Of a DNA stretch of 64,000 nt, positions 8,559 to 52,345 are shown piece by piece (the first letter of the stretch is position 1; each line of letters opens with the position of its first letter). The DNA is from a virus (Duplodnaviria; Caudoviricetes): positions 8,928-72,927 of IMG/VR virus record IMGVR_UViG_3300031994_000079; one strand, given 5' to 3'. Made by a program: the position numbers and the translations under genes. The notes beneath the pieces were generated by a model. It saw only the letters and a program-made list of their open reading frames with translations, was not told where the DNA came from and ran no database searches.

Positions 8559-9070
8559 CTGTTGATGAGTTAATGGAGAATTTTCAGAAATATACTAATT
8601 ATAAGGAACTTCTCACTACTAATTCAGGCCATGAAATTTCACCTAAAGAACATAAGTTTGTTAATTCTTATATGATAAATGGTGACCCGGCTGTTGCGGC
8701 TAAGGATGCAGGCTATGTTATTAAGAATAAGACAACTTATGAGAATATAGGCAAAAGACTTCTCAAAAAACCCTATATCTATGAGGAGATTCTTTATAGG
8801 ATAGAGGAAATGAATAAGTCTCAGATAGCGGACGAGCAGGAAGTTATGAGATATTTTACAGCAGTCATGAGAGGGGAAGTCAAAGACCAGTTTGACCTTG
8901 ATGCCCCGCTTTCTGAAAGGACATCGGCTGCCAAAGAACTTGCCAAGAGGTTGATAGATGTACCAGCTAAACAGGCAGACACAGCTATTCAGATAAACCT
9001 TAATTGGAGCCGAGAACCAGTTTTAGAAACAGAATATGTAGAATCAGAGGTAGTTGCGGATGCAGTATAA
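8555..9070 (+). CDS. terS: terminase small subunit
   Basis: SPKEHKFVNSYMINGDPAVAAKDAGY...LLKKP HTH and EQEVMRYFTAVMRGE...SERTSAAKELAKR motifs; directly before TerL. Confidence 0.85.
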   Translation: MTVDELMENFQKYTNYKELLTTNSGHEISPKEHKFVNSYMINGDPAVAAKDAGYVIKNKTTYENIGKRLLKKPYIYEEILYRIEEMNKSQIADEQEVMRYFTAVMRGEVKDQFDLDAPLSERTSAAKELAKRLIDVPAKQADTAIQINLNWSREPVLETEYVESEVVADAV

Positions 9071-43354: not shown

Positions 43355-44329
43355 ATGTATATAAATAATGTACTATTTAATTGTGAGCTTTCAGATATAA
43401 TATCAGAAGCAAGAAGTCAGTTGGCTATGAATGGAATAGATATAGGTAAAACTCGTGATGCGCCTAAAGATATAATGGTATGCTGTCCGTTTCATGGTGA
43501 ACGTAGACCAAGTGCTGGTATAAGAAAAGACGATGGTCAATTTAATTGCTTTGCTTGTCATGAAAGCCATAGTTTAGCTAAAGTAATATCACAGTGGTTT
43601 GGTAAGACAGATGATGTAATAGGCGCATTTGGTTGGCAATGGTTATTAAAGAATTTTGCAACAATGCAAGTAGAGGAGAGAAAAGATGTTAAATTGGATT
43701 TTAGTCGTAATAGGGGTATACGTAATGACGATAGGGTTGATAGTATCAATAGCGAGGATAATAGATATATTTCAGAACAGGAGTTAGATAGCTACCGATA
43801 TACACATCCATATTGGACAAAACGTGGAATAATTGAAGATTGGTTAATAGATTTGTTTGATTTAGGATATTCACCAAAAGAACGTATGATAACATTTCCA
43901 AATTTAGATAAATATGGTAATTGTTTATTTGTTGCAAAAAGAAGTATTGATAAAAAATTCTTTAATTATCCTAATAATGCAAACAAACACGTTTACGGTA
44001 TATATCAATTATATCAGTTGCAACAATTTCCAAAAGAAGTTTATATAACGGAGAGTATGATTGATTGTTTATTATTATGGCAATATGGTAAGTATGCTTG
44101 TGCTTTAAATGGTCTTGGTAATAATATACAGTTTAAAGAATTATCAGAAATGCCATGTAGAAAATTTATTCTTGCTACTGATTCTGATAATGCTGGTATG
44201 AAAGCGAGAGAACGTATTAAGCAAAATGTAAGAGGAAAAATGTTCACAGAAGTTATATTACCTGCTATGAAAAAAGATATAGGTGAATGTAGTGAGAAGG
44301 AAATAAAAAATCTTGTAGAGGTATTTTAA
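43355..44329 (+). CDS. dnaG: DNA primase (CHC2 zinc finger plus TOPRIM)
   Basis: CPFHGERRPS...CFAC; ITESMID; ATDSD. Confidence 0.92.
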   Translation: MYINNVLFNCELSDIISEARSQLAMNGIDIGKTRDAPKDIMVCCPFHGERRPSAGIRKDDGQFNCFACHESHSLAKVISQWFGKTDDVIGAFGWQWLLKNFATMQVEERKDVKLDFSRNRGIRNDDRVDSINSEDNRYISEQELDSYRYTHPYWTKRGIIEDWLIDLFDLGYSPKERMITFPNLDKYGNCLFVAKRSIDKKFFNYPNNANKHVYGIYQLYQLQQFPKEVYITESMIDCLLLWQYGKYACALNGLGNNIQFKELSEMPCRKFILATDSDNAGMKARERIKQNVRGKMFTEVILPAMKKDIGECSEKEIKNLVEVF

Positions 44330-44425
44330 AATGACGGCATTAAAAATAAACGAGTAAAACCTGAAGATTTACAAAAATATTTAGATTTAGGTTATGTAAA
44401 AGGTAGATTAACACCTTGGCAATAA
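44330..44425 (+). pseudogene. remnant C-terminus of a homing endonuclease
   Basis: No in-frame start; NDGIKNKRVKPEDLQKYLDLGYVKGR resembles the terminal DNA-binding motif of phage HNH/GIY-YIG endonucleases. Confidence 0.5.
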
Positions 44426-44530
44426 AATTTACAAGAAGTGTTTTAACCTATTGCAATCTATATACATTTATGTTATAGTATATTTGTACAGAACAGTACA
44501 CACAAAAGCAGAAAGGAGGCAAAGACAAAA

Positions 44531-45160
44531 GTGAATGAAGAAATCTTCGGACAAAGATATGCAGACAGACGTACACATAGGTCAGGCGTATTATTAGAGT
44601 ACGATAGCAAGTACAAAACATATCTTCTTGAATCCCAAGATGGTAAAACATTCAATATAACATCAGCACAATTCAATAAGAATTGGAAACTTACTGATGA
44701 AGTAGCAGAAGTAGAACCAATAGAAGCTGAACAGGCAGAAGTTGGTGATAAACGCTACAAAGGACCATCAGAAGAACAGAAAGACGAGCTGAATAAGATA
44801 TTGGAAACATTCTTTTTAATCGGCAAAGAGTATGTAGATGAATTTCAAAATGAAATAATCACTATAAAGCCAGAGCCGTATAAGAGAAGATTTTTGATGA
44901 AAGTCAGACATCATACAGTATTTATAATGGATTGTATGTTGAGACGGAGAAATTGCAGAGTATGGTTAAGAGAGTATATAAGCAGTTTAATGTCTTGGAC
45001 AGTTAAGCCAATATCAATTAAGCGTTATCCTGGTACTAATATGAATACAGCAGTAGAGTTTCCGCTTGAAAATCTTAAAGAAGTGTTAGATGATTTAACA
45101 GCAGTTGTAATTCAAGATATGACAGAAATGGAGGAAAAAAGAAATGGGGTGATAAAGTGA
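44531..45160 (+). CDS. hypothetical two-domain protein
   Basis: 209 aa, own promoter (TGTTATAGT near 44471) and AAAGGAGG RBS. Confidence 0.7.
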   Translation: MNEEIFGQRYADRRTHRSGVLLEYDSKYKTYLLESQDGKTFNITSAQFNKNWKLTDEVAEVEPIEAEQAEVGDKRYKGPSEEQKDELNKILETFFLIGKEYVDEFQNEIITIKPEPYKRRFLMKVRHHTVFIMDCMLRRRNCRVWLREYISSLMSWTVKPISIKRYPGTNMNTAVEFPLENLKEVLDDLTAVVIQDMTEMEEKRNGVIK

Positions 45161-45894
45161 GATATGCAGATGGTCAATATAGAGAAAAACTTTATACAGT
45201 ATATATGCATATCACACCAAATAATAAGAGTTATGTAGGTATAACTTGTCAATCACTTGAATGTAGGTGGAATGATGGAGATGGTTATAAACATCAGAGA
45301 TTATTTTGGCGAGCAATTCAAAAGTATGGTTGGGAAAATATAAAGCATATAGAATTGTTTAATGGTTTGTCTTTTGAAGATGCAAGTAATATTGAAAAAG
45401 ATTTAATTAGACAGTTTGAATCTAATAATCCAAAATATGGATATAATTTGACAGATGGTGGTGAAGGTATGTCAGGTTATAAGTTTACAGCAGAGCAGTT
45501 AGCTTGGCGTAGTAAAGTTAGTACTGGTAGAAAACATACACAAGCTACAAAAGATAAATTGTCAAAGATGAAGAAAGGTTCAAAATTAAATCTTACAGAT
45601 GAACAAAGACAGGCTTGTGCTGAAAGAGGTAGAATACAAGGTATAAAGAATAAAGGTCGTAAGCATACAGAAGAAGAATGTAATAAGATAAAAGAAGCAG
45701 TACATAAGCGTTATGCAAACGGCGGTATAGCACCACATTGTAAACCTCATACTGAGGAGACAAAACGTAAGATAAGCGAGAAGCAAAAAGGACGAGTTAT
45801 ATCAGAAGAACACAGAGAAAAATTAAGACAAGCCGCGTTAAAACAGTGGCAAAGACAAAAAGGAGGAATTAAAAATGAGATTCAGTTACAATGA
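45157..45894 (+). mobile_element. free-standing GIY-YIG homing endonuclease with NUMOD3 repeats
   Basis: VYMHITPNNKSYVGIT, GYNLTDGG, repeated HT.ETK.KIS. Confidence 0.85.
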
Positions 45895-46522
45895 GGCAGA
45901 TAATTACGGTAGCAATGGTGGTAGTAGTTTTTTCACATTACGTGATGATGGTGATACAGCAAGAGTACGTATTATGTATGGCAGTATTGATGATGTAGAA
46001 GGTCTTTCAGTACATGAGATAGACCTGAACGATAAGAAAAGGTATGTAAACTGCATCAGAGAATATAATGACCCGATAGATATGTGTCCTCTTTGCAAAG
46101 CAAACTACAAGATACAGGCTAAGTTGTTTGTACCGTTGTATAATGAAGATACAGGCGAAACACTTGTTTGGGAGAGGGGTAAGAAGTTCTTTGGTAAGAT
46201 TTCAGATTTGTGTACAAGATATGATAACCTCGTTTCAAGAGTGTTTGAGATTGTAAGACATGGCAAGCCGAAAGATACAGGTACAACATATGAGATATGG
46301 CCTGTAGGTGATAAAGACAATACAACATTTGAAGATTTGCCTGAACCTGTAGATGTTATGAAAGGTATTGTGCTTGATAAGACAGCAGATGAACTTGACT
46401 ATTATCTGAGGTATCATGAGTTTCCCGATAATGATGCTCCTGCGAGAGAAGAAGCACCGAGACGCAGAGAGCAGTCAGTACCTATGAGAAGAACTCCTGC
46501 GAGAGGAAATGAGGCATTCTAA
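45875..46522 (+). CDS. single-stranded DNA-binding protein (gp32-like)
   Basis: FFTLRDDGD, HE...YVNC...CPLC, WERG; acidic/Pro tail ending in F. Confidence 0.75.
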   Translation: MRFSYNEADNYGSNGGSSFFTLRDDGDTARVRIMYGSIDDVEGLSVHEIDLNDKKRYVNCIREYNDPIDMCPLCKANYKIQAKLFVPLYNEDTGETLVWERGKKFFGKISDLCTRYDNLVSRVFEIVRHGKPKDTGTTYEIWPVGDKDNTTFEDLPEPVDVMKGIVLDKTADELDYYLRYHEFPDNDAPAREEAPRRREQSVPMRRTPARGNEAF

Positions 46523-48054
46523 TGGCATTGATAAATATACCTAAGCGAAGCACAAAAGAAAAAGATTTGGCACTTGCTAAGAAGTCAAATTCTGTTCAGA
46601 AAGCTATCCCCACTGTAAAGGGTGGGGGTAGCATTATTAACAAGATACAAACTATCCAAGCATTAGTTGAGACTAAACTTGGTAAATATAAAGATGAATA
46701 TATTATCATTCGTGATGAAGCCACGTTGATTGATTATATAGATGTATGTATAGAGAATAGTATAATATCTCTTGATACAGAGACAACCGGGTTAGACCCG
46801 TTGCTTGATGAGATAGTTGGTATATGTATCTATACACCGGGTGAGAAAGGTGCATATATTCCTATCAATCATGTTTCATATATAACATTAGAGCGAGTAG
46901 CTAACCAGTTAGATATAGATTTTTTGAATGAACAGTTTACAAGGTTATATGATTGTGAATTAGATAGCATAATGTTTAATGCCAAGTTTGATATAAGATT
47001 TATGAGAAACAAAGTTGGTGTTAAGAATATTTATTGTACATGGGATAGTTATTTAGCTCAAAGGTGTTTGAATGAGAATGAGCCACATAATGGTCTTAAA
47101 TTGTTACATGAGAAGTATGTTCTCAACGGTGAAGGTGATGCGTGGTCATTCGGTGATTTATTTAAGAATATATCATTTTCATATATACCGATTAAGACAG
47201 CATATCTGTATGCGGCACGTGACCCGGTTATTACATATGAGCTTTATGATTATCAGAGGAAATATCTGAAAGAAGATACCGATAGGGAAGATTTAAGAAA
47301 TGTGTATTGGATATTTAAGAACATAGAAATGCCGTGTGTATCTGTAGTAGCCGATATGGAAGATACTGGTATAGAGTTCGATTTCGATTATAATGAGAAG
47401 TTGAAAGAGAAGTACCATAAGTTATTGGAAGAACGTATACAGAGCTTTAACGAAATGTGCGGTATGTATTCTAAAGAAATACAAGAGTATAGAGACACAA
47501 CAGGTTCAAGTTGTAAATTAGATGACCCTATAAATATAAAGTCACCAACACAGCTTGCAATACTTCTCTATGATATAATGGGATGTGAAATACCAAAAGA
47601 TAAAAAGACCAAGAAAGAAGTACGGTCAACAAATGAAGAAACATTGAAGTCAATGGATAATCCTATTGCAAAAGCAATATTAGATTATAGAGAGTTTTCC
47701 ACTATTGTAGATACATTCATAGATAAGTTGCCTGAATGTGTCAATCCTAATGATGGTCGTATTCATTGTCAGTTTAATCAGTACGGTGCAAGAACAGGTA
47801 GATTTAGTAGTGAGAACCCTAATATGCAGAACATACCTTCTCATAATAAAGAGATAAGACAGATGTTTAAAGCAACAGATGATGAATCTATTTTGGAAAC
47901 AGAGAATGATATATTTATGGTGGACAAATTTGATGAAGTATACACATCTAATGGTTGGGTTAGTTGTAGCAAATTAAAAATCGGTGATGATTTAGACGGT
48001 TGTATAATCAAATCAATAAAACTCCAAGATGATAAGTATATTATAGGTGTATAG
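46522..48054 (+). CDS. polA: DNA polymerase family A, N-terminal piece (3'-5' exonuclease, thumb, start of palm)
   Basis: SLDTETTG, FNAKFD, YAARD; ARTGRFSSENPNMQNIP; ends in about 56 extra aa. Confidence 0.9.
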   Translation: MALINIPKRSTKEKDLALAKKSNSVQKAIPTVKGGGSIINKIQTIQALVETKLGKYKDEYIIIRDEATLIDYIDVCIENSIISLDTETTGLDPLLDEIVGICIYTPGEKGAYIPINHVSYITLERVANQLDIDFLNEQFTRLYDCELDSIMFNAKFDIRFMRNKVGVKNIYCTWDSYLAQRCLNENEPHNGLKLLHEKYVLNGEGDAWSFGDLFKNISFSYIPIKTAYLYAARDPVITYELYDYQRKYLKEDTDREDLRNVYWIFKNIEMPCVSVVADMEDTGIEFDFDYNEKLKEKYHKLLEERIQSFNEMCGMYSKEIQEYRDTTGSSCKLDDPINIKSPTQLAILLYDIMGCEIPKDKKTKKEVRSTNEETLKSMDNPIAKAILDYREFSTIVDTFIDKLPECVNPNDGRIHCQFNQYGARTGRFSSENPNMQNIPSHNKEIRQMFKATDDESILETENDIFMVDKFDEVYTSNGWVSCSKLKIGDDLDGCIIKSIKLQDDKYIIGV

Positions 48055-48185
48055 ATTTTTCACAACAAGTCACAAGCAACTTATCAGAGGAAAATATTGG
48101 AAGAAATGAAAAAAGGTTATTGTATGTTTAGGAGAAGAAAATATACTTTTGACATACATTGGTATAGAAAGGGAGGTGATGCCAA

Positions 48186-48245
48186 ATGAAAAAGTCGATA
48201 AGAGTTAGAAAAAATTATGTTCTAATGTCTGCCGACTATTCTTAG
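48186..48245 (+). CDS. polA: PolA motif-A mini-ORF (19 aa) ending in TAG
   Basis: GGGAGGTG RBS; MKKSIRVRKNYVLMSADYS*. Confidence 0.75.
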   Translation: MKKSIRVRKNYVLMSADYS

Positions 48246-48246
48246 G

Positions 48247-49155
48247 TCACAGCAAGAGCCAAAGGTCATGACTATGATGTGTCAAGACCCGAAGATGATA
48301 AAAGCGTATCAAGAAGGGAGAGATTTATATGCGGAGATTGCGTCACTTTCTTTCAATACAACTTATGATAATTGCCTTGAATTTAGACCCGACGGCACTA
48401 CTAACAGAGAAGGTAAAGAGCGTAGGAGCCAGGCAAAATCTATATTATTGGGCGTTCTCTACGGCAGAGGTGTCCCAAGTATTGCAGAACAGCTTGGAAC
48501 AACTACGAAAAAGGCTCAAACAATCAAAGATAGTGTAATGAAAGGTTTTCCTGCTATTGAAAAATTTGAACAGGATAGTTTAAGAATGGCAGAAGATTTA
48601 GGATATGTAACTACATTGTGGGGTAGAAAGAGAAGATTACCAGATTTACAATTAGATGAGTTTGAGTTTAAATGGAAAGATGGTGCACCACAAGATAATG
48701 ATGTACTGGATTTTGATGAAGAAATAGATTATAATGTACCTATAGAAACGCAGAAAAAATATCTTAGGTTATTAAGTCAAGCAAGATTCGGTGAGAAGCG
48801 TAAGATATTTGAAAAAGCTAACGCAGAAGGAATATGGATAATAGATAACGGGGCGAAGATAGCAGATGCACAAAGGCAGTGCGTAAATGCAAGAATACAA
48901 GGTTCAGCCGCAGATATGTCAAAGTTAGCTATGATAAAAATAGGTAATGATAAGATATTAAAAGAATTAGGTTTCAGAATGTTAGTGCCAGTACATGATG
49001 AAATCATAGCTGAATGTCCTAAAGAACATGCAAAGAAATGTGTAGAGAGGTTTTCACAGTTAATGTCAGAAGCACCAGGTGAAAAGTTTACAATACCTAT
49101 TAAGTGTGATGTAGATGTAACAGAATGTTGGTATGGAGATAAAGTTAAAATTTAG
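48247..49155 (+). CDS. polA: DNA polymerase family A, C-terminal piece in the +1 frame
   Basis: SQQEPKV..., motif B RSQAKSILLGVLYG, NARIQGSAAD, motif C VHDE. Confidence 0.9.
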   Translation, partial: SQQEPKVMTMMCQDPKMIKAYQEGRDLYAEIASLSFNTTYDNCLEFRPDGTTNREGKERRSQAKSILLGVLYGRGVPSIAEQLGTTTKKAQTIKDSVMKGFPAIEKFEQDSLRMAEDLGYVTTLWGRKRRLPDLQLDEFEFKWKDGAPQDNDVLDFDEEIDYNVPIETQKKYLRLLSQARFGEKRKIFEKANAEGIWIIDNGAKIADAQRQCVNARIQGSAADMSKLAMIKIGNDKILKELGFRMLVPVHDEIIAECPKEHAKKCVERFSQLMSEAPGEKFTIPIKCDVDVTECWYGDKVKI

Positions 49156-49975
49156 TATATTTATAACATCACATAATAGTCCATATGAATGTACATCTTA
49201 TGTTTCATTGAGGACAGCAGGATATACAGGTGACATATATATCGTTATAGATGATACTGACCCTCAGTTTGATGAATATGATAGGTCAGGAAATAATCTT
49301 GTAGTATTTCATAAGCAGGATTATGTCAAGAAATTAGATATAGGTATGTCTAAATTAAATCCTCAATTAGCCGCTGTATTGTATGCAAGGGCAGCTGTAG
49401 AAGATTTTGCAAAGCAAATGGACTTAGATTATTTTATGGTAATGGATGATGATATATATGGATTTAGGTATAGATATTCTGATAAAAATAAGTTATGTTC
49501 AAAGCCTGTTGAAAACTTTGATATTCTAATAGATAATTATATTCAGTTTATGAAAGAAAGTAATTCATTATGCCTATCTTTTGCACATGATGGCTCATTT
49601 ATAGGTGGGTTAAGTGCTATACCTAAAATATTGGAACGTAGGTCTTGTCATACAATATTTTTACGTGATACGTCAAAAGAGTTTGAGTGGAAGTTTGCAG
49701 TAAATGAAGATTATGTATCATCATTATTGTATGCTAACATAGGAAAATTGATGTTGACATTACCATTTGTTCAGAGAAATATATCAGGTATGAATGATAG
49801 ACAAGAAGGTATGCATGATTTATATGAGAGTACCACAGAGTTTCAAAGAGCTTTCTATAATGTAATAGCTTGTCCTTGGACATGTGTTGTTGCTGAATAT
49901 AATAATCATTTTGTTGTTAGAACAAATAAGTCCACAGCATATCCAAAAATAATAAGTAGCAGATATAGGAGATAA
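49133..49975 (+). CDS. GT-A glycosyltransferase, TAGT/GREB1-like (putative DNA base modification)
   Basis: IFITSH, IVIDDTD, YARA, VMDDDI, NED motifs. Confidence 0.7.
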   Translation: MEIKLKFSIFITSHNSPYECTSYVSLRTAGYTGDIYIVIDDTDPQFDEYDRSGNNLVVFHKQDYVKKLDIGMSKLNPQLAAVLYARAAVEDFAKQMDLDYFMVMDDDIYGFRYRYSDKNKLCSKPVENFDILIDNYIQFMKESNSLCLSFAHDGSFIGGLSAIPKILERRSCHTIFLRDTSKEFEWKFAVNEDYVSSLLYANIGKLMLTLPFVQRNISGMNDRQEGMHDLYESTTEFQRAFYNVIACPWTCVVAEYNNHFVVRTNKSTAYPKIISSRYRR

Positions 49976-49978
49976 ATT

Positions 49979-50374
49979 ATGCCATTGATAAATGTAAAGA
50001 AAAAGGAAATTGATAATACATATACAACTAAAGTACAGATACCACAATATATTCCAAAACAAGAAAAGCCACCTATAACAGGGTTAGTAGACACAGAGAA
50101 GTATTCAAAATTACTTTATAATATCAATAATAGTAATGTGTCTGAGGAAGAGAAGAAGTTTTTGAGGTTTGCGGCTGCAAGACATTTAGCATTTAACTAT
50201 TCATTGATAGCTGATTACTATGCCAACGCAGATAAAGAAATGCAAGAACTTATGGAACAGTCAGCGTTAGTAATATTGGATATAGATGATGCTATAGCTA
50301 ATGGATATGTTAAGTTATCGGATAGCATAAAGCAGTTATTAAAGGAGAGTGGTGAACTTGCATCTAAGGAGTAA
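49979..50374 (+). CDS. accessory protein between the two glycosyltransferase genes
   Basis: FLRFAAARHLAFNYSLIADYYA...LVILDIDDAIANG. Confidence 0.6.
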   Translation: MPLINVKKKEIDNTYTTKVQIPQYIPKQEKPPITGLVDTEKYSKLLYNINNSNVSEEEKKFLRFAAARHLAFNYSLIADYYANADKEMQELMEQSALVILDIDDAIANGYVKLSDSIKQLLKESGELASKE

Positions 50375-51233
50375 TTTTGTTGTATTTATATTATCTCATG
50401 GACGACCTAATAAAGTTTACACTTATGACACAATACGAAAATCAGGATATACAGGGCCTATTGTATTAGTGTTAGATAATGAAGATAATACTATTGACGA
50501 ATATAAGCATGTATATGAAGCAAAAGAAAATACAGGTGTATATGTATTTGATAAATTAGATATAGCTAATAGGTATGACGAAGTTGATAGAGGTAAAGAT
50601 AGACGTACAATATTTTATGCGAGAAATGCCTGTTTTGAAATAGCGAAAAAATTAGATTATACGTATTTTTTGGAACTCGATGATGATTATGTAAAATTTA
50701 GAAGTCGAGTAGATATAGATGGTAAGTTTGCAACTATATATCATACTGACCTCGATTCTTTATTTGAGATAATGTTACAATTTTTAGATGATACAAAAGC
50801 CTATACCGTAGCGTTTTCACAAACAGGAGATTTTATAGGTGGTATGGGTAGTAGAGTTTATAAAGAAAAATTATCAAGAAAGGCTATGAATAGTTTTTTC
50901 TGCACTATAGAGAGACCGTTTAAGTTTCTTGGTAGAATAAATGAAGATGTAAATACATATGTTAGTGAAGGTTCAAAAGGTAATCTTATGTTTACAATAG
51001 CTGATGCGTCATTAGACCAGACACAAACACAATCAAATTCTGGCGGTATGACAGAAATGTACCTAAATTCTGGCACATATGTGAAATCATTTTTTACTAT
51101 AATAACTAATCCATCAAGTGTCGTTATACATGAAATGGGTAGCTCTCATAAGAGAATACATCATTTAATAGATTGGAACAAAGCAGTACCAAAAATAATA
51201 AGTAGTAACTTCAAGAAAGGAGAGAAAGTATGA
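50349..51233 (+). CDS. GT-A glycosyltransferase, TAGT/GREB1-like (paralogue)
   Basis: ILSHGRP, YARN, ELDDDY, NSFF, GRINEDV, SGGMT. Confidence 0.75.
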   Translation: MVNLHLRSNFVVFILSHGRPNKVYTYDTIRKSGYTGPIVLVLDNEDNTIDEYKHVYEAKENTGVYVFDKLDIANRYDEVDRGKDRRTIFYARNACFEIAKKLDYTYFLELDDDYVKFRSRVDIDGKFATIYHTDLDSLFEIMLQFLDDTKAYTVAFSQTGDFIGGMGSRVYKEKLSRKAMNSFFCTIERPFKFLGRINEDVNTYVSEGSKGNLMFTIADASLDQTQTQSNSGGMTEMYLNSGTYVKSFFTIITNPSSVVIHEMGSSHKRIHHLIDWNKAVPKIISSNFKKGEKV

Positions 51234-52345
51234 AGTTTACAATCACAACGGCAGTGTTACAAGACATGCTGACAAAATCAACCAAATGTGCATCAAATGA
51301 CAATCAGAGACCATTAACAGGCTTGATAGCTATTCAGTTGAAGGATAATGTTCTTACGCTGATAACATCAAGCGCCACTAATTATCTGTATGTTCATAAA
51401 GATAAGATAGTTGGTGAAGATTTTTATGTAGTTGTGCCTGTAGAGATATTCTCTAAGTTAGTTTCCAAATTAACAGCGGAGAATACAACACTTGAACTTA
51501 AGGATAATAATCTGATAGTAACAAGCGGTGGTACATATACAATTGGTGTATCTATTGATGAAGAAGGAGAGCTTACGAGATATCCTGACCCATATAACAC
51601 AAGTGATGAGTTTACAAATTATAAGGCTTATCCTATTAAGAAATCAACGCTTAATCTTATTCTTTCAGTCAATTCAGCCTCGATAGCAGAAGGTGAGATG
51701 GCAAAAGATTTGCCCGAAGTTTACACAGGTTATCATATGTCAGATTCAATAGTAACCACAGATTCTATAAAGATGTGCGGTATAGATATAAAGGTATGTG
51801 ATGAGCCTATACTTGTAAGGCCTGAAACAATGAAGCTGACAGATGTATTTACCGAGGAGAACTTAGAGATAAGGATAAGTGATGATGCAAGAGGTAATAA
51901 GAATATCGTCATAACATCAGCAGGTGATATTGATTGCGATATAGTAAGTAAGTTGTTAGAGAACATGGAAGATTTTGCAATCAATGATATAAACGGCTTG
52001 TTAGCATCAGATTTTGCCAGCTCATGTGCAATAAGTAAAGTTAAATTCCTGCAGGCGTTAGATAGATTATCATTGTTTATAAATAAGTTAGACGATTTCG
52101 CCCTGTTTCTCACATTCACTAATGACGGCTTGAAGTTAGCGAATAAGAAGTCAAGTAGTGAGGAAGTAATAGCTTATGAAGCAAGTGATGATTTTAAGCC
52201 TTACTCATGTGTGCTTGATATAAACGCACTTACCAATCAGATAAAAGCAGTACCCGGTGATTTAGTAAATATCTACTATGGTAATGAAGTAGCTGTCAAG
52301 TTTGAAGATGGTAATATTACCCAGATGATAGCACTTATGCAGTAA
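51230..52345 (+). CDS. dnaN: DNA sliding clamp (beta subunit)
   Basis: 371 aa, three-domain pattern; RPLTG, TTDSIKM, ALDRLSLF. Confidence 0.8.
   Translation: MKFTITTAVLQDMLTKSTKCASNDNQRPLTGLIAIQLKDNVLTLITSSATNYLYVHKDKIVGEDFYVVVPVEIFSKLVSKLTAENTTLELKDNNLIVTSGGTYTIGVSIDEEGELTRYPDPYNTSDEFTNYKAYPIKKSTLNLILSVNSASIAEGEMAKDLPEVYTGYHMSDSIVTTDSIKMCGIDIKVCDEPILVRPETMKLTDVFTEENLEIRISDDARGNKNIVITSAGDIDCDIVSKLLENMEDFAINDINGLLASDFASSCAISKVKFLQALDRLSLFINKLDDFALFLTFTNDGLKLANKKSSSEEVIAYEASDDFKPYSCVLDINALTNQIKAVPGDLVNIYYGNEVAVKFEDGNITQMIALMQ

Follow-up and report, generated by a model that had tools for sequence, protein, structure and literature searches.

A phage polA gene split by a putative GIY-YIG endonuclease cassette and a candidate Ser-to-Ser ribosomal hop at polymerase motif A

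The interruption in motif A

The DNA analysed here, called the window throughout, is a stretch of 64,000 nt (positions 8,928 to 72,927) of the IMG/VR record IMGVR_UViG_3300031994_000079, a virus of the Caudoviricetes. Its DNA polymerase gene, polA, is split into two fragments, and the C fragment is broken within the catalytic motif A by a stop codon and a change of reading frame, with a Ser codon on each side. Comparison with related loci leads us to regard a ribosomal hop from the first Ser codon to the second as probable, with good confidence, and as the one mechanism considered that fits all forms of the interruption. After translating a 19-codon leader, ribosomes would pause at a point where the P site holds UCU paired with peptidyl-tRNA(Ser) and the A site holds UAG. 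This tRNA would then unpair, the mRNA would move by 7 nt, and the tRNA would re-pair with UCA, so that decoding restarts at CAG. The product would read ...ADYSQQEPK..., identical in this motif to the unsplit polymerases, and would contain the peptide NYVLMSADYSQQEPK with one Ser between Y and Q. The N and C fragments would assemble non-covalently, and the gap, by disrupting the target site without altering the protein, would shield the carrier genome from the cassette's endonuclease.

All features described below lie on the + strand. The leader of the C fragment is an open reading frame (ORF) of 19 codons, MKKSIRVRKNYVLMSADYS (48186-48242), composed of a basic new N-terminus (48186-48212) and a copy of polA (48213-48242) that reads N-Y-V-L-M-S-A-D-Y-S and contains the catalytic Asp. 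The Shine-Dalgarno (SD) region AGGGAGGTGA (48170-48179) precedes it, with GGAGG at 48172-48176, 9 nt before the ATG at 48186, and GGAGGTGAT-like sequence is kept 5' of the leader start in all cassette loci. Compared with the parental allele, represented by the X3 contig, the codons for Y-V-L-M-S-A-D-Y-S differ mainly at third positions, and this segment is therefore a recoded copy and not the parental sequence. The leader ends in the proposed take-off codon TCT (Ser; 48240-48242), and the candidate untranslated gap TAGG (48243-48246), composed of the stop codon TAG and one G, follows. The proposed landing codon is TCA (Ser; 48247-48249), the first UCN after take-off. The +1 frame is closed upstream by TAA at 48223-48225, reads S-Q-Q-E-P-K-V from the TCA at 48247, and is open to the TAG at 49153-49155. 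The resumed C fragment (48250-49155) comprises Q-Q-E-P of motif A, the fingers, and motifs B and C; it matches Pfam DNA_pol_A model positions 160-381 and is 52-77% identical to unsplit relatives. The first in-frame downstream ATG is at 48268.

An earlier note made from the letters of the window alone had described this 19-codon ORF with its strong ribosome-binding site (RBS), its stop at TAG 48243-48245, the remainder in the +1 frame with the upstream TAA, and the downstream ATG; each of these was read directly in the window. Its statement that a +1 shift would add Arg-Ser also holds, as reading across UCU-UAG gives D-Y-S-R-S-Q-Q-E-P. The ORF at 48186 had been taken as the beginning of the whole polymerase. 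It is a real, RBS-led ORF, but it begins the second half of a split gene, and the split had been missed.

The N fragment (46522-48054; 510 aa in the ORF list) is in the same frame as the piece of the C fragment that starts at 48247, with four stops between them. It comprises the 3'-5' exonuclease domain, the polymerase up to a point just short of motif A (Pfam DNA_pol_A_exo1; DNA_pol_A model positions 9-154), a foreign tail, and a terminal TAG. It aligns with the unsplit polA of phage phiCTP1 as far as IRxMF, and the polA alignment ends after I-R-x-M-F-K-A-T-D, beyond which lie about 57 foreign beta-rich residues. This cassette-encoded C-terminal tail occupies 47881-48051; contigs with an unsplit allele diverge from the window at 47879-47881, and homologous tails are present in relatives.

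Four unsplit relatives (L001, L002, L004, and L005), namely the Clostridium phages phiCTP1 and FA88 and two IMG/VR contigs with 61-77% identity, read GAC TAY (TCN or AGY) CAR CAR GAR CCA without interruption. Relative to them, the window thus carries exactly 7 additional nt, flanked by the Ser codons TCT and TCA, and removing the 7 nt restores ADYSQQEP as the earlier note had proposed. The identical 7 nt are found in an independent ENA assembly (L006), 7 extra nt are likewise kept in a contig of a bovine run from another study (X4), which has no gaps over 48160-48279, and a 151-nt contig of a sheep-gut RNA library (X24) matches 48170-48320 exactly. A contig of the source sample agrees as well and is not independent of the window. 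X3 and X24 leave some parts of the stretch without cover, and no weight was placed on these absences. A sequencing or assembly artefact would be conceivable in a metagenome-assembled genome (MAG) for which full-length reads are supplied solely by the likely source sample; it is refuted by the same or equivalent interruptions in independent assemblies of other studies, and we give it practically no credence.

The virus record from which the window is taken is complete, with 72.9 kb and direct terminal repeats, and near-identical DNA occurs in sheep and cattle gut metagenomes. The virus is a rumen phage, and the neighbours of polA are the phage's own primase and beta-clamp genes. PolA is the sole DNA polymerase family detected in the complete genome, in which neither PolB nor DnaE was found. 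Since both polA fragments terminate in TAG, this phage uses the standard genetic code, with TAG as a genuine stop. For this reason, and because all three stops occur in the gaps of relatives and tRNA genes are absent from the genome, stop-codon reassignment and a suppressor tRNA were considered but rejected. A megablast search of cultured phages with the polA region gave no match, and a more distant search returned unsplit Clostridium phages only.

Gap variation and the alternatives to a hop

Three pattern scans over IMG/VR, a profile search based on the C fragment, and one scan of a genome collection supplied related loci, together with six further contigs picked by the tail alone. About 50 related contigs show 21 distinct forms of take-off codon, gap, and landing codon. 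Conservation of Ser-stop-Ser, with a gap that varies among related polA genes, had been set beforehand as the decisive test of the hop, and this is the pattern observed; the support for a stop-hop between matched codons comes from this comparison of relatives. The three tail-selected relatives that reach the C fragment carry TCT TAG G TCA, TCT TAG G TCT, and TCT TAG T TCA. Across the 21 forms the skip is 4, 6, 7, 8, 9, 10, 14, 15, 16, or 32 nt (the last in L120:4899-4930), the frame relation is 0, +1, or -1, and TAG, TAA, and TGA are all used.

What remains constant in all forms is Asp-Tyr/Phe followed by a Ser codon, a stop directly after it, a landing on a Ser codon of the same box, and Gln-Gln-Glu-Pro. 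Take-off and landing codons belong to the same Ser box in 21 of 21 forms (TCN to TCN or AGT to AGT) and are thus readable by the same peptidyl-tRNA. The landing codon is likewise the first same-box triplet past take-off in any frame in all 21. The take-off codon is TCT in 19 of 21 gap-bearing loci versus 3 of 59 unsplit alleles, and 19 of the 59 use an AGY Ser codon. A slow codon in the A site is provided in every form by TAG, TAA, or TGA next to take-off; in AGT T AGT, the TAG overlaps the landing codon. The TAGG of the window is missing from all unsplit alleles and is replaced by 20 other gap forms in relatives.

The gap changes quickly while its surroundings do not. In a tree of tail plus leader, the tight clade of L019, L027, L013, and L024 (branches <=0.11) has skips of 7, 6, 7, and 16 nt, respectively, and gap length changes at least 5-7 times over the cassette family. 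L013 and L027 have identical leader peptides and differ by one G in the gap, and hence in frame, with downstream ORFs of about 310 codons in both, and L024, whose leader is identical or nearly so, has a 16-nt skip with its downstream ORF open to the contig end. As these close relatives differ by 1 or 9 nt within the gap with the downstream ORFs kept open, the gap is not decoded in triplets, and a hop tolerates such differences. Length, frame, and content of the gap vary while the flanks stay coding-constrained. The downstream ORFs mostly have about 300-360 codons. In L022, L127/L136/L140, and L133, the frame of the C fragment is open for just 78-118 codons past landing, and these polymerases may be interrupted a second time downstream.

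Conventional recoding in each lineage, by +1 or -1 frameshifting or by stop readthrough, would place extra residues in motif A, as in D-Y-S-R-S-Q-Q-E-P for the window. In the window, no stop interrupts the +1 frame across the site from 48226 on, +1 shifting is known to be stimulated when a stop occupies the A site (prfB), and the 4-nt AGT T AGT class would gain one Ser only. Nevertheless, three mechanisms would be needed within one homologous cassette family, and R, S, K, E, A, V, EW, RK, ARK, and others would be inserted in the most conserved motif of the enzyme, although L119, a split allele with no gap, and all unsplit alleles lack extra residues. The 6-, 9-, and 15-nt forms are in frame with a stop, and the 15-, 16-, and 32-nt forms have stops within the gap in the landing frame, which makes frameshifting or readthrough impossible for these three. 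A shift from UCU to CUU gives no re-pairing, and the landing on the first same-box triplet is left unexplained. The frame relations of 0, +1, and -1 and the landing-frame stops also set these sites apart from programmed +1 frameshifting of the prfB or Ty type. Conventional recoding is thus judged very improbable.

Removal of the gap from the mRNA by micro-splicing or editing before translation would also give the uninterrupted motif. Of 20 loci, 19 allow a short hairpin with the gap in or next to its loop, in which the region of the Asp codon pairs with the gap end and the landing codon. RNA removal would require neither matching take-off and landing codons nor a stop as the first triplet of the gap. 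Rfam at E up to 1 finds no match over 44000-52000, and the 7 nt are present in the one RNA-library contig that covers the site. We know of no bacterial or phage system that removes 1-29 nt in this way, and this explanation appears very doubtful. The earlier note had further suggested the scar of a lost intron, for which no support was found. A group I intron, as an explanation of the insertion of about 335 nt upstream, was dropped for the same lack of an Rfam match and also because the tail evolves like a protein, the C fragment is equipped with an SD and a start codon of its own, and excision would leave the 7 nt.

The hairpin was also considered as a signal for the hop. It is stronger in the 6- and 10-nt classes, where 1-5% of controls are as low, and the longer gaps are purine-rich just 5' of the landing codon. 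In the 7-nt class no strong stimulatory signal turned up, and the hairpin as a required signal is not supported there, being no better than in recoded controls.

The endonuclease cassette and its mobility

A search with the tail returned four proteins of 506-513 aa with 68-93% identity. The contigs of three of them are complete over the region and carry, in order, an N fragment with tail, a GIY-YIG gene of about 230 aa, and a polA C fragment; the contigs of the fourth stop just past the N fragment. GIY-YIG and NUMOD3 domains are present in the intact endonuclease of L006. Of this endonuclease, the window retains just the final 45 residues, encoded in the 131 nt that separate the two fragments (BLASTP versus the intact L006 gene: 49% identity, E 4e-12), and the remnant (48055-48189) is without the catalytic domain. 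The X4 contig has 724 nt where the window has 89 nt, and the alignment of the window with L006 shows a deletion of roughly 650-700 nt. The 45-codon remnant and the length difference of the X4 contig show that the endonuclease gene was deleted in the window genome. The stop of the remnant (48187-48189) overlaps the leader start (48186-48188) as ATGA, as does that of the intact gene of L006, which suggests translational coupling of the endonuclease and the C fragment. A consensus scan between the polA fragments found no terminator and no convincing promoter, which is weak evidence in favour of co-transcription.

By its sequence, the insertion that split polA is a free-standing GIY-YIG homing-endonuclease cassette encoding a putative nuclease. 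The relatives have a GIY-YIG domain with a DNA-binding module, and the cassette is polymorphic for presence and absence at one site. Its insertion just before motif A would supply, from left to right, the N-fragment tail, the GIY-YIG gene, an RBS and start codon, the basic leader, the recoded D-Y-S segment, and the stop-led gap. The leader is basic and 17-20 codons long at all loci.

The gap is closely tied to this cassette. Each gap allele is a split allele, with an SD and a start codon of its own 17-20 codons upstream, and the gap occurs in none of the 64 distinct uninterrupted alleles of the C-fragment tree. Every examined locus with an endonuclease gene also has the gap, and the gap is kept without the endonuclease in the window, L016, L020, L022/L118, and L077/L117. 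Among split alleles chosen by the tail alone, 9 of 10 have the gap. The tenth, L119, is the only split allele seen to lack the gap and has no endonuclease either; its leader runs straight into S-Q-Q-E-P, and DFSQQEP is continuous. By its sequence, L119 displays the product expected of a hop. The earlier idea that the 7 nt destroy a homing-endonuclease target fits these observations, as the gap accompanies a GIY-YIG cassette in the manner of T4 mobA and gene 60. By analogy with that system, protection from self-cleavage is the most likely role of the gap.

Sequence comparison shows the cassette to be mobile. Gap alleles are scattered over the polA C-fragment tree, in which 16 changes are needed and at least 11 are forced by well-supported branches, and near-identical pairs with and without the gap occur (L023/L096 and L026/L076). 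Between the window and L006, dS is about 0.8 in both parts of polA versus 0.07 in the tail, the leader has no differences, and DNA identity is 93-100% from about 47660 to 48300 and 75-90% elsewhere. A bovine-run contig with flanks about 97-98% identical to the window carries an unsplit allele, in which 34 nt replace 47880-48252 and the junction reads K-A-T-D-G-Y-V-L-M-S-A-D-Y-S-Q-Q-E-P. The source sample itself also holds a low-depth contig (X1) with an unsplit allele, whose join lies exactly at 48247 and thereby places the right-hand end of the cassette at the landing codon. The genome-collection scan contributed two real carriers, both uncultured MAG contigs, and one chance match (L112).

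A profile of the tail collects 82 protein clusters at 90% identity, nearly all of them polA N fragments of 505-532 aa. The cassette lineages are about one substitution per site apart, and the tail has a dN/dS of 0.11-0.5, in line with purifying selection. The divergence of the lineages and the selection on the tail indicate that the split and gap arrangement is old.

These data bear on the possibility that the polymerase is not restored at all, either in a decaying gene with the host polymerase as substitute or in a three-piece enzyme with the leader released at the TAG and the C fragment started from the ATG at 48268. This ATG is indeed present, and the endonuclease gene of the window has already decayed. 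Against such decay stand the conservation of the arrangement over these divergent cassettes, the selection on the tail, the preserved SD, start, leader length, and D-Y/F-S codons, and the long downstream ORFs of most loci. Many relatives have no start near the landing codon (in L007 the next Met is 20 codons on) and still keep S-Q-Q-E-P. The polymerase must still be made, because polA, among the phage primase and beta-clamp genes, is the sole polymerase, and a cassette that kills the polymerase could not spread so. We therefore hold it very unlikely that the polymerase is lost or made in three pieces.

Several observations weigh against the hop or its proposed role. The single RNA-library contig could derive from DNA carry-over. 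The GACU/GGUC hairpin of the 7-nt class is weak (dG -5.4 kcal/mol), is matched by 19% of synonymous or random recodings, and has z-scores near zero. The conservation of the leader is not cleanly assignable to a nascent-peptide signal, and engineered stop-hops are reportedly inefficient, at about 1%. No cultured phage carries the cassette in a tblastn search of 50,697 phage records with two tails, and the endonuclease is gone from the window genome, where the gap is thus without obvious current benefit.

The N-fragment tail was modelled with AlphaFold (AF2) from 21 tails, with a mean pLDDT of 77.5 and five strands. The top five matches of VIA-align to this structure are mini-inteins, aligned from intein residue 1; they are weak (Z 4.5-4.9, rmsd 1.3-1.8 A, 43-47 residues), and, like the Foldseek intein match (E 0.4), they lie below the level that shows relatedness. 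From this model, an origin of the tail from a Hint domain is plausible. The only invariant residues in the tail alignment are F1, A3, G40, and D41. A split intein made from the two halves was rejected, because the tail lacks a conserved nucleophile and the leaders lack a conserved Asn-plus-nucleophile junction. As the splicing residues are absent, protein trans-splicing is not possible, and the two halves of the polymerase must associate non-covalently.

Two split polA N fragments of about 911 aa (L119:2501-5236, or P0058, and P0062) contain a bona fide intein at NQYGAK|C...HN|TGRFSS (Pfam Intein_splicing; LAGLIDADG only faint). The proposal that this intein is the ancestor of the tail at motif A proved wrong, as it lies at another site and the tail match in these proteins is an ordinary tail at the protein end. 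In the tail alignment, which includes L023:6138-6353, L090:2459-2671, and L013:454-657, some tails end in D-Y-S right before the stop, and several begin with a degenerate copy of motif A (e.g., L-V-S-T-D-T-Q-Q-F). This sequence pattern hints that the left arm of the cassette may also carry a decayed duplicate of the target segment.

The cassettes of L013, L027, L115, and L024 are 1.4-2.0 kb long versus about 0.75 kb, with extra ORFs beside the GIY-YIG gene, between the stop of the N fragment and the leader, and one of these ORFs begins like a C5 DNA methyltransferase. The extra ORFs indicate that the cassette can acquire cargo. A Ser-stop-Ser interruption in a D-F-S variant is found in L126, L130, L132-L137, and L141 on phage contigs of 89-205 kb; the cassette family therefore extends beyond the rumen phage group of about 60-75 kb.

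Relation to known systems

What is known of programmed bypassing in bacteria and phages comes, to our knowledge, from a single well-studied family, that of T4 gene 60 with its homologues. In T4 mobA/gene 60, the gap protects against self-cleavage, and no similar bypassing has been reported in phages outside the gene 60 homologues (Manning and Atkins 2022, bioRxiv 10.1101/2022.08.31.505936). The two systems are alike in that an essential replication gene is split at its catalytic site by a free-standing homing endonuclease (gene 39/mobA/gene 60 in T4), with a C-terminal extension on ORF1 and an N-terminal extension on ORF2 that consists of a unique part and a recoded copy of the replaced segment. 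In both, the recoded copy is followed by a stop-led gap, the landing codon matches the take-off codon, and the landing codon marks the end of the element. Both show recent, scattered insertions, the endonuclease is often decayed or lost with the gap kept, and rare split derivatives without a gap exist.

In contrast, the two elements share no homology, and the target is the Toprim domain of topoisomerase II in T4 and motif A of polA here, with HNH MobA and GIY-YIG endonucleases, respectively. The T4 gap has 50 nt, uses Gly GGA, and is entered at codon 46, whereas the polA gaps have 1-29 nt (4 in the window), use Ser, and are entered at codons 17-20. T4 gene 60 has a take-off stem-loop, an internal SD, and a nascent-peptide signal; for the polA element, no robust equivalent has been shown. 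The features of the MobA/gene 60 family, namely an HNH MobA, a Topo2L target, and a conserved 50-nt cassette, are absent from the polA element, which on sequence grounds is an analogue and not a member of this family.

Synthetic E. coli constructs have been used to demonstrate stop-hops between matched codons, shorter counterparts of matched-codon bypassing have 'long been presumed', and no natural in-frame stop-hop was known as of the 2016 review by Atkins and colleagues (PMC5009743). The 6-nt polA class UCU UAG UCA has exactly the geometry of these constructs, and the 7-nt form of the window has one base more. Unlike them, the polA sites occur in nature, are conserved, lie in an essential gene, and include out-of-frame as well as longer versions. 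In the mitochondria of Magnusiomyces capitatus, 'byp' inserts of 27-55 nt are summarised in two sources (10.1101/2022.08.31.505936; PMC5009743). They are disruptive inserts in essential genes, neutralised by bypassing from one matched or near-matched codon to the other with a slow codon in the A site, as proposed for polA. In contrast to polA, the system is mitochondrial, with relaxed decoding, many insertion sites, and mobile inserts resembling GC clusters, and it has no endonuclease cassette.

In fractured genes (Dassa et al. 2009, PMC2677866), a split intein is combined with a free-standing endonuclease of the GIY-YIG or Vsr-like type that lies between the gene halves. Such genes resemble the polA element in that a replication gene is in two parts with a free-standing GIY-YIG gene between them, and the polA tail weakly resembles an N-terminal intein half. 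They differ from it in that the start of the polA tail has no conserved nucleophile and the end of the leader has no His-Asn plus nucleophile.

No published description of the polA hop was found in the literature searched. A broader claim, which we rate as somewhat better than even, is that bypass and endonuclease cassettes have arisen at least twice and that the polA version is a minimal bypass. Ordinary bacterial ribosomes would then hop 4-32 nt efficiently enough for an essential polymerase, with two matched Ser codons, a stop, and a short basic nascent leader as the only signals, a take-off at codon 17-20 of a fresh ORF, and the gap as a self-immunity device. If true, this would be a second and independent case of bypassing, with a natural series of gap lengths (1-29 nt), stops, frames, and codon pairs. 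Small reporters could then address the minimal needs of take-off and landing, the competition with release factors, and the effect of a short nascent chain on hopping. It would also support a general rule that homing endonucleases can protect their carrier through untranslatable DNA within a conserved target. For annotation, gene callers give such polymerases as truncated or with a false ATG start, as in L007.

A second free-standing GIY-YIG gene with NUMOD3 lies in the window at 45157-45894, between two replication-region ORFs and overlapping both. The close relative L006 has no gene at the matching position, and the encoded protein is distant from the polA cassette endonuclease (32% in the catalytic domain). 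In L075:3380-3500, polA is uninterrupted at motif A and has a stop 33 codons upstream, just before N-L-Q-N-I-P, which suggests a different break or insertion site within polA.

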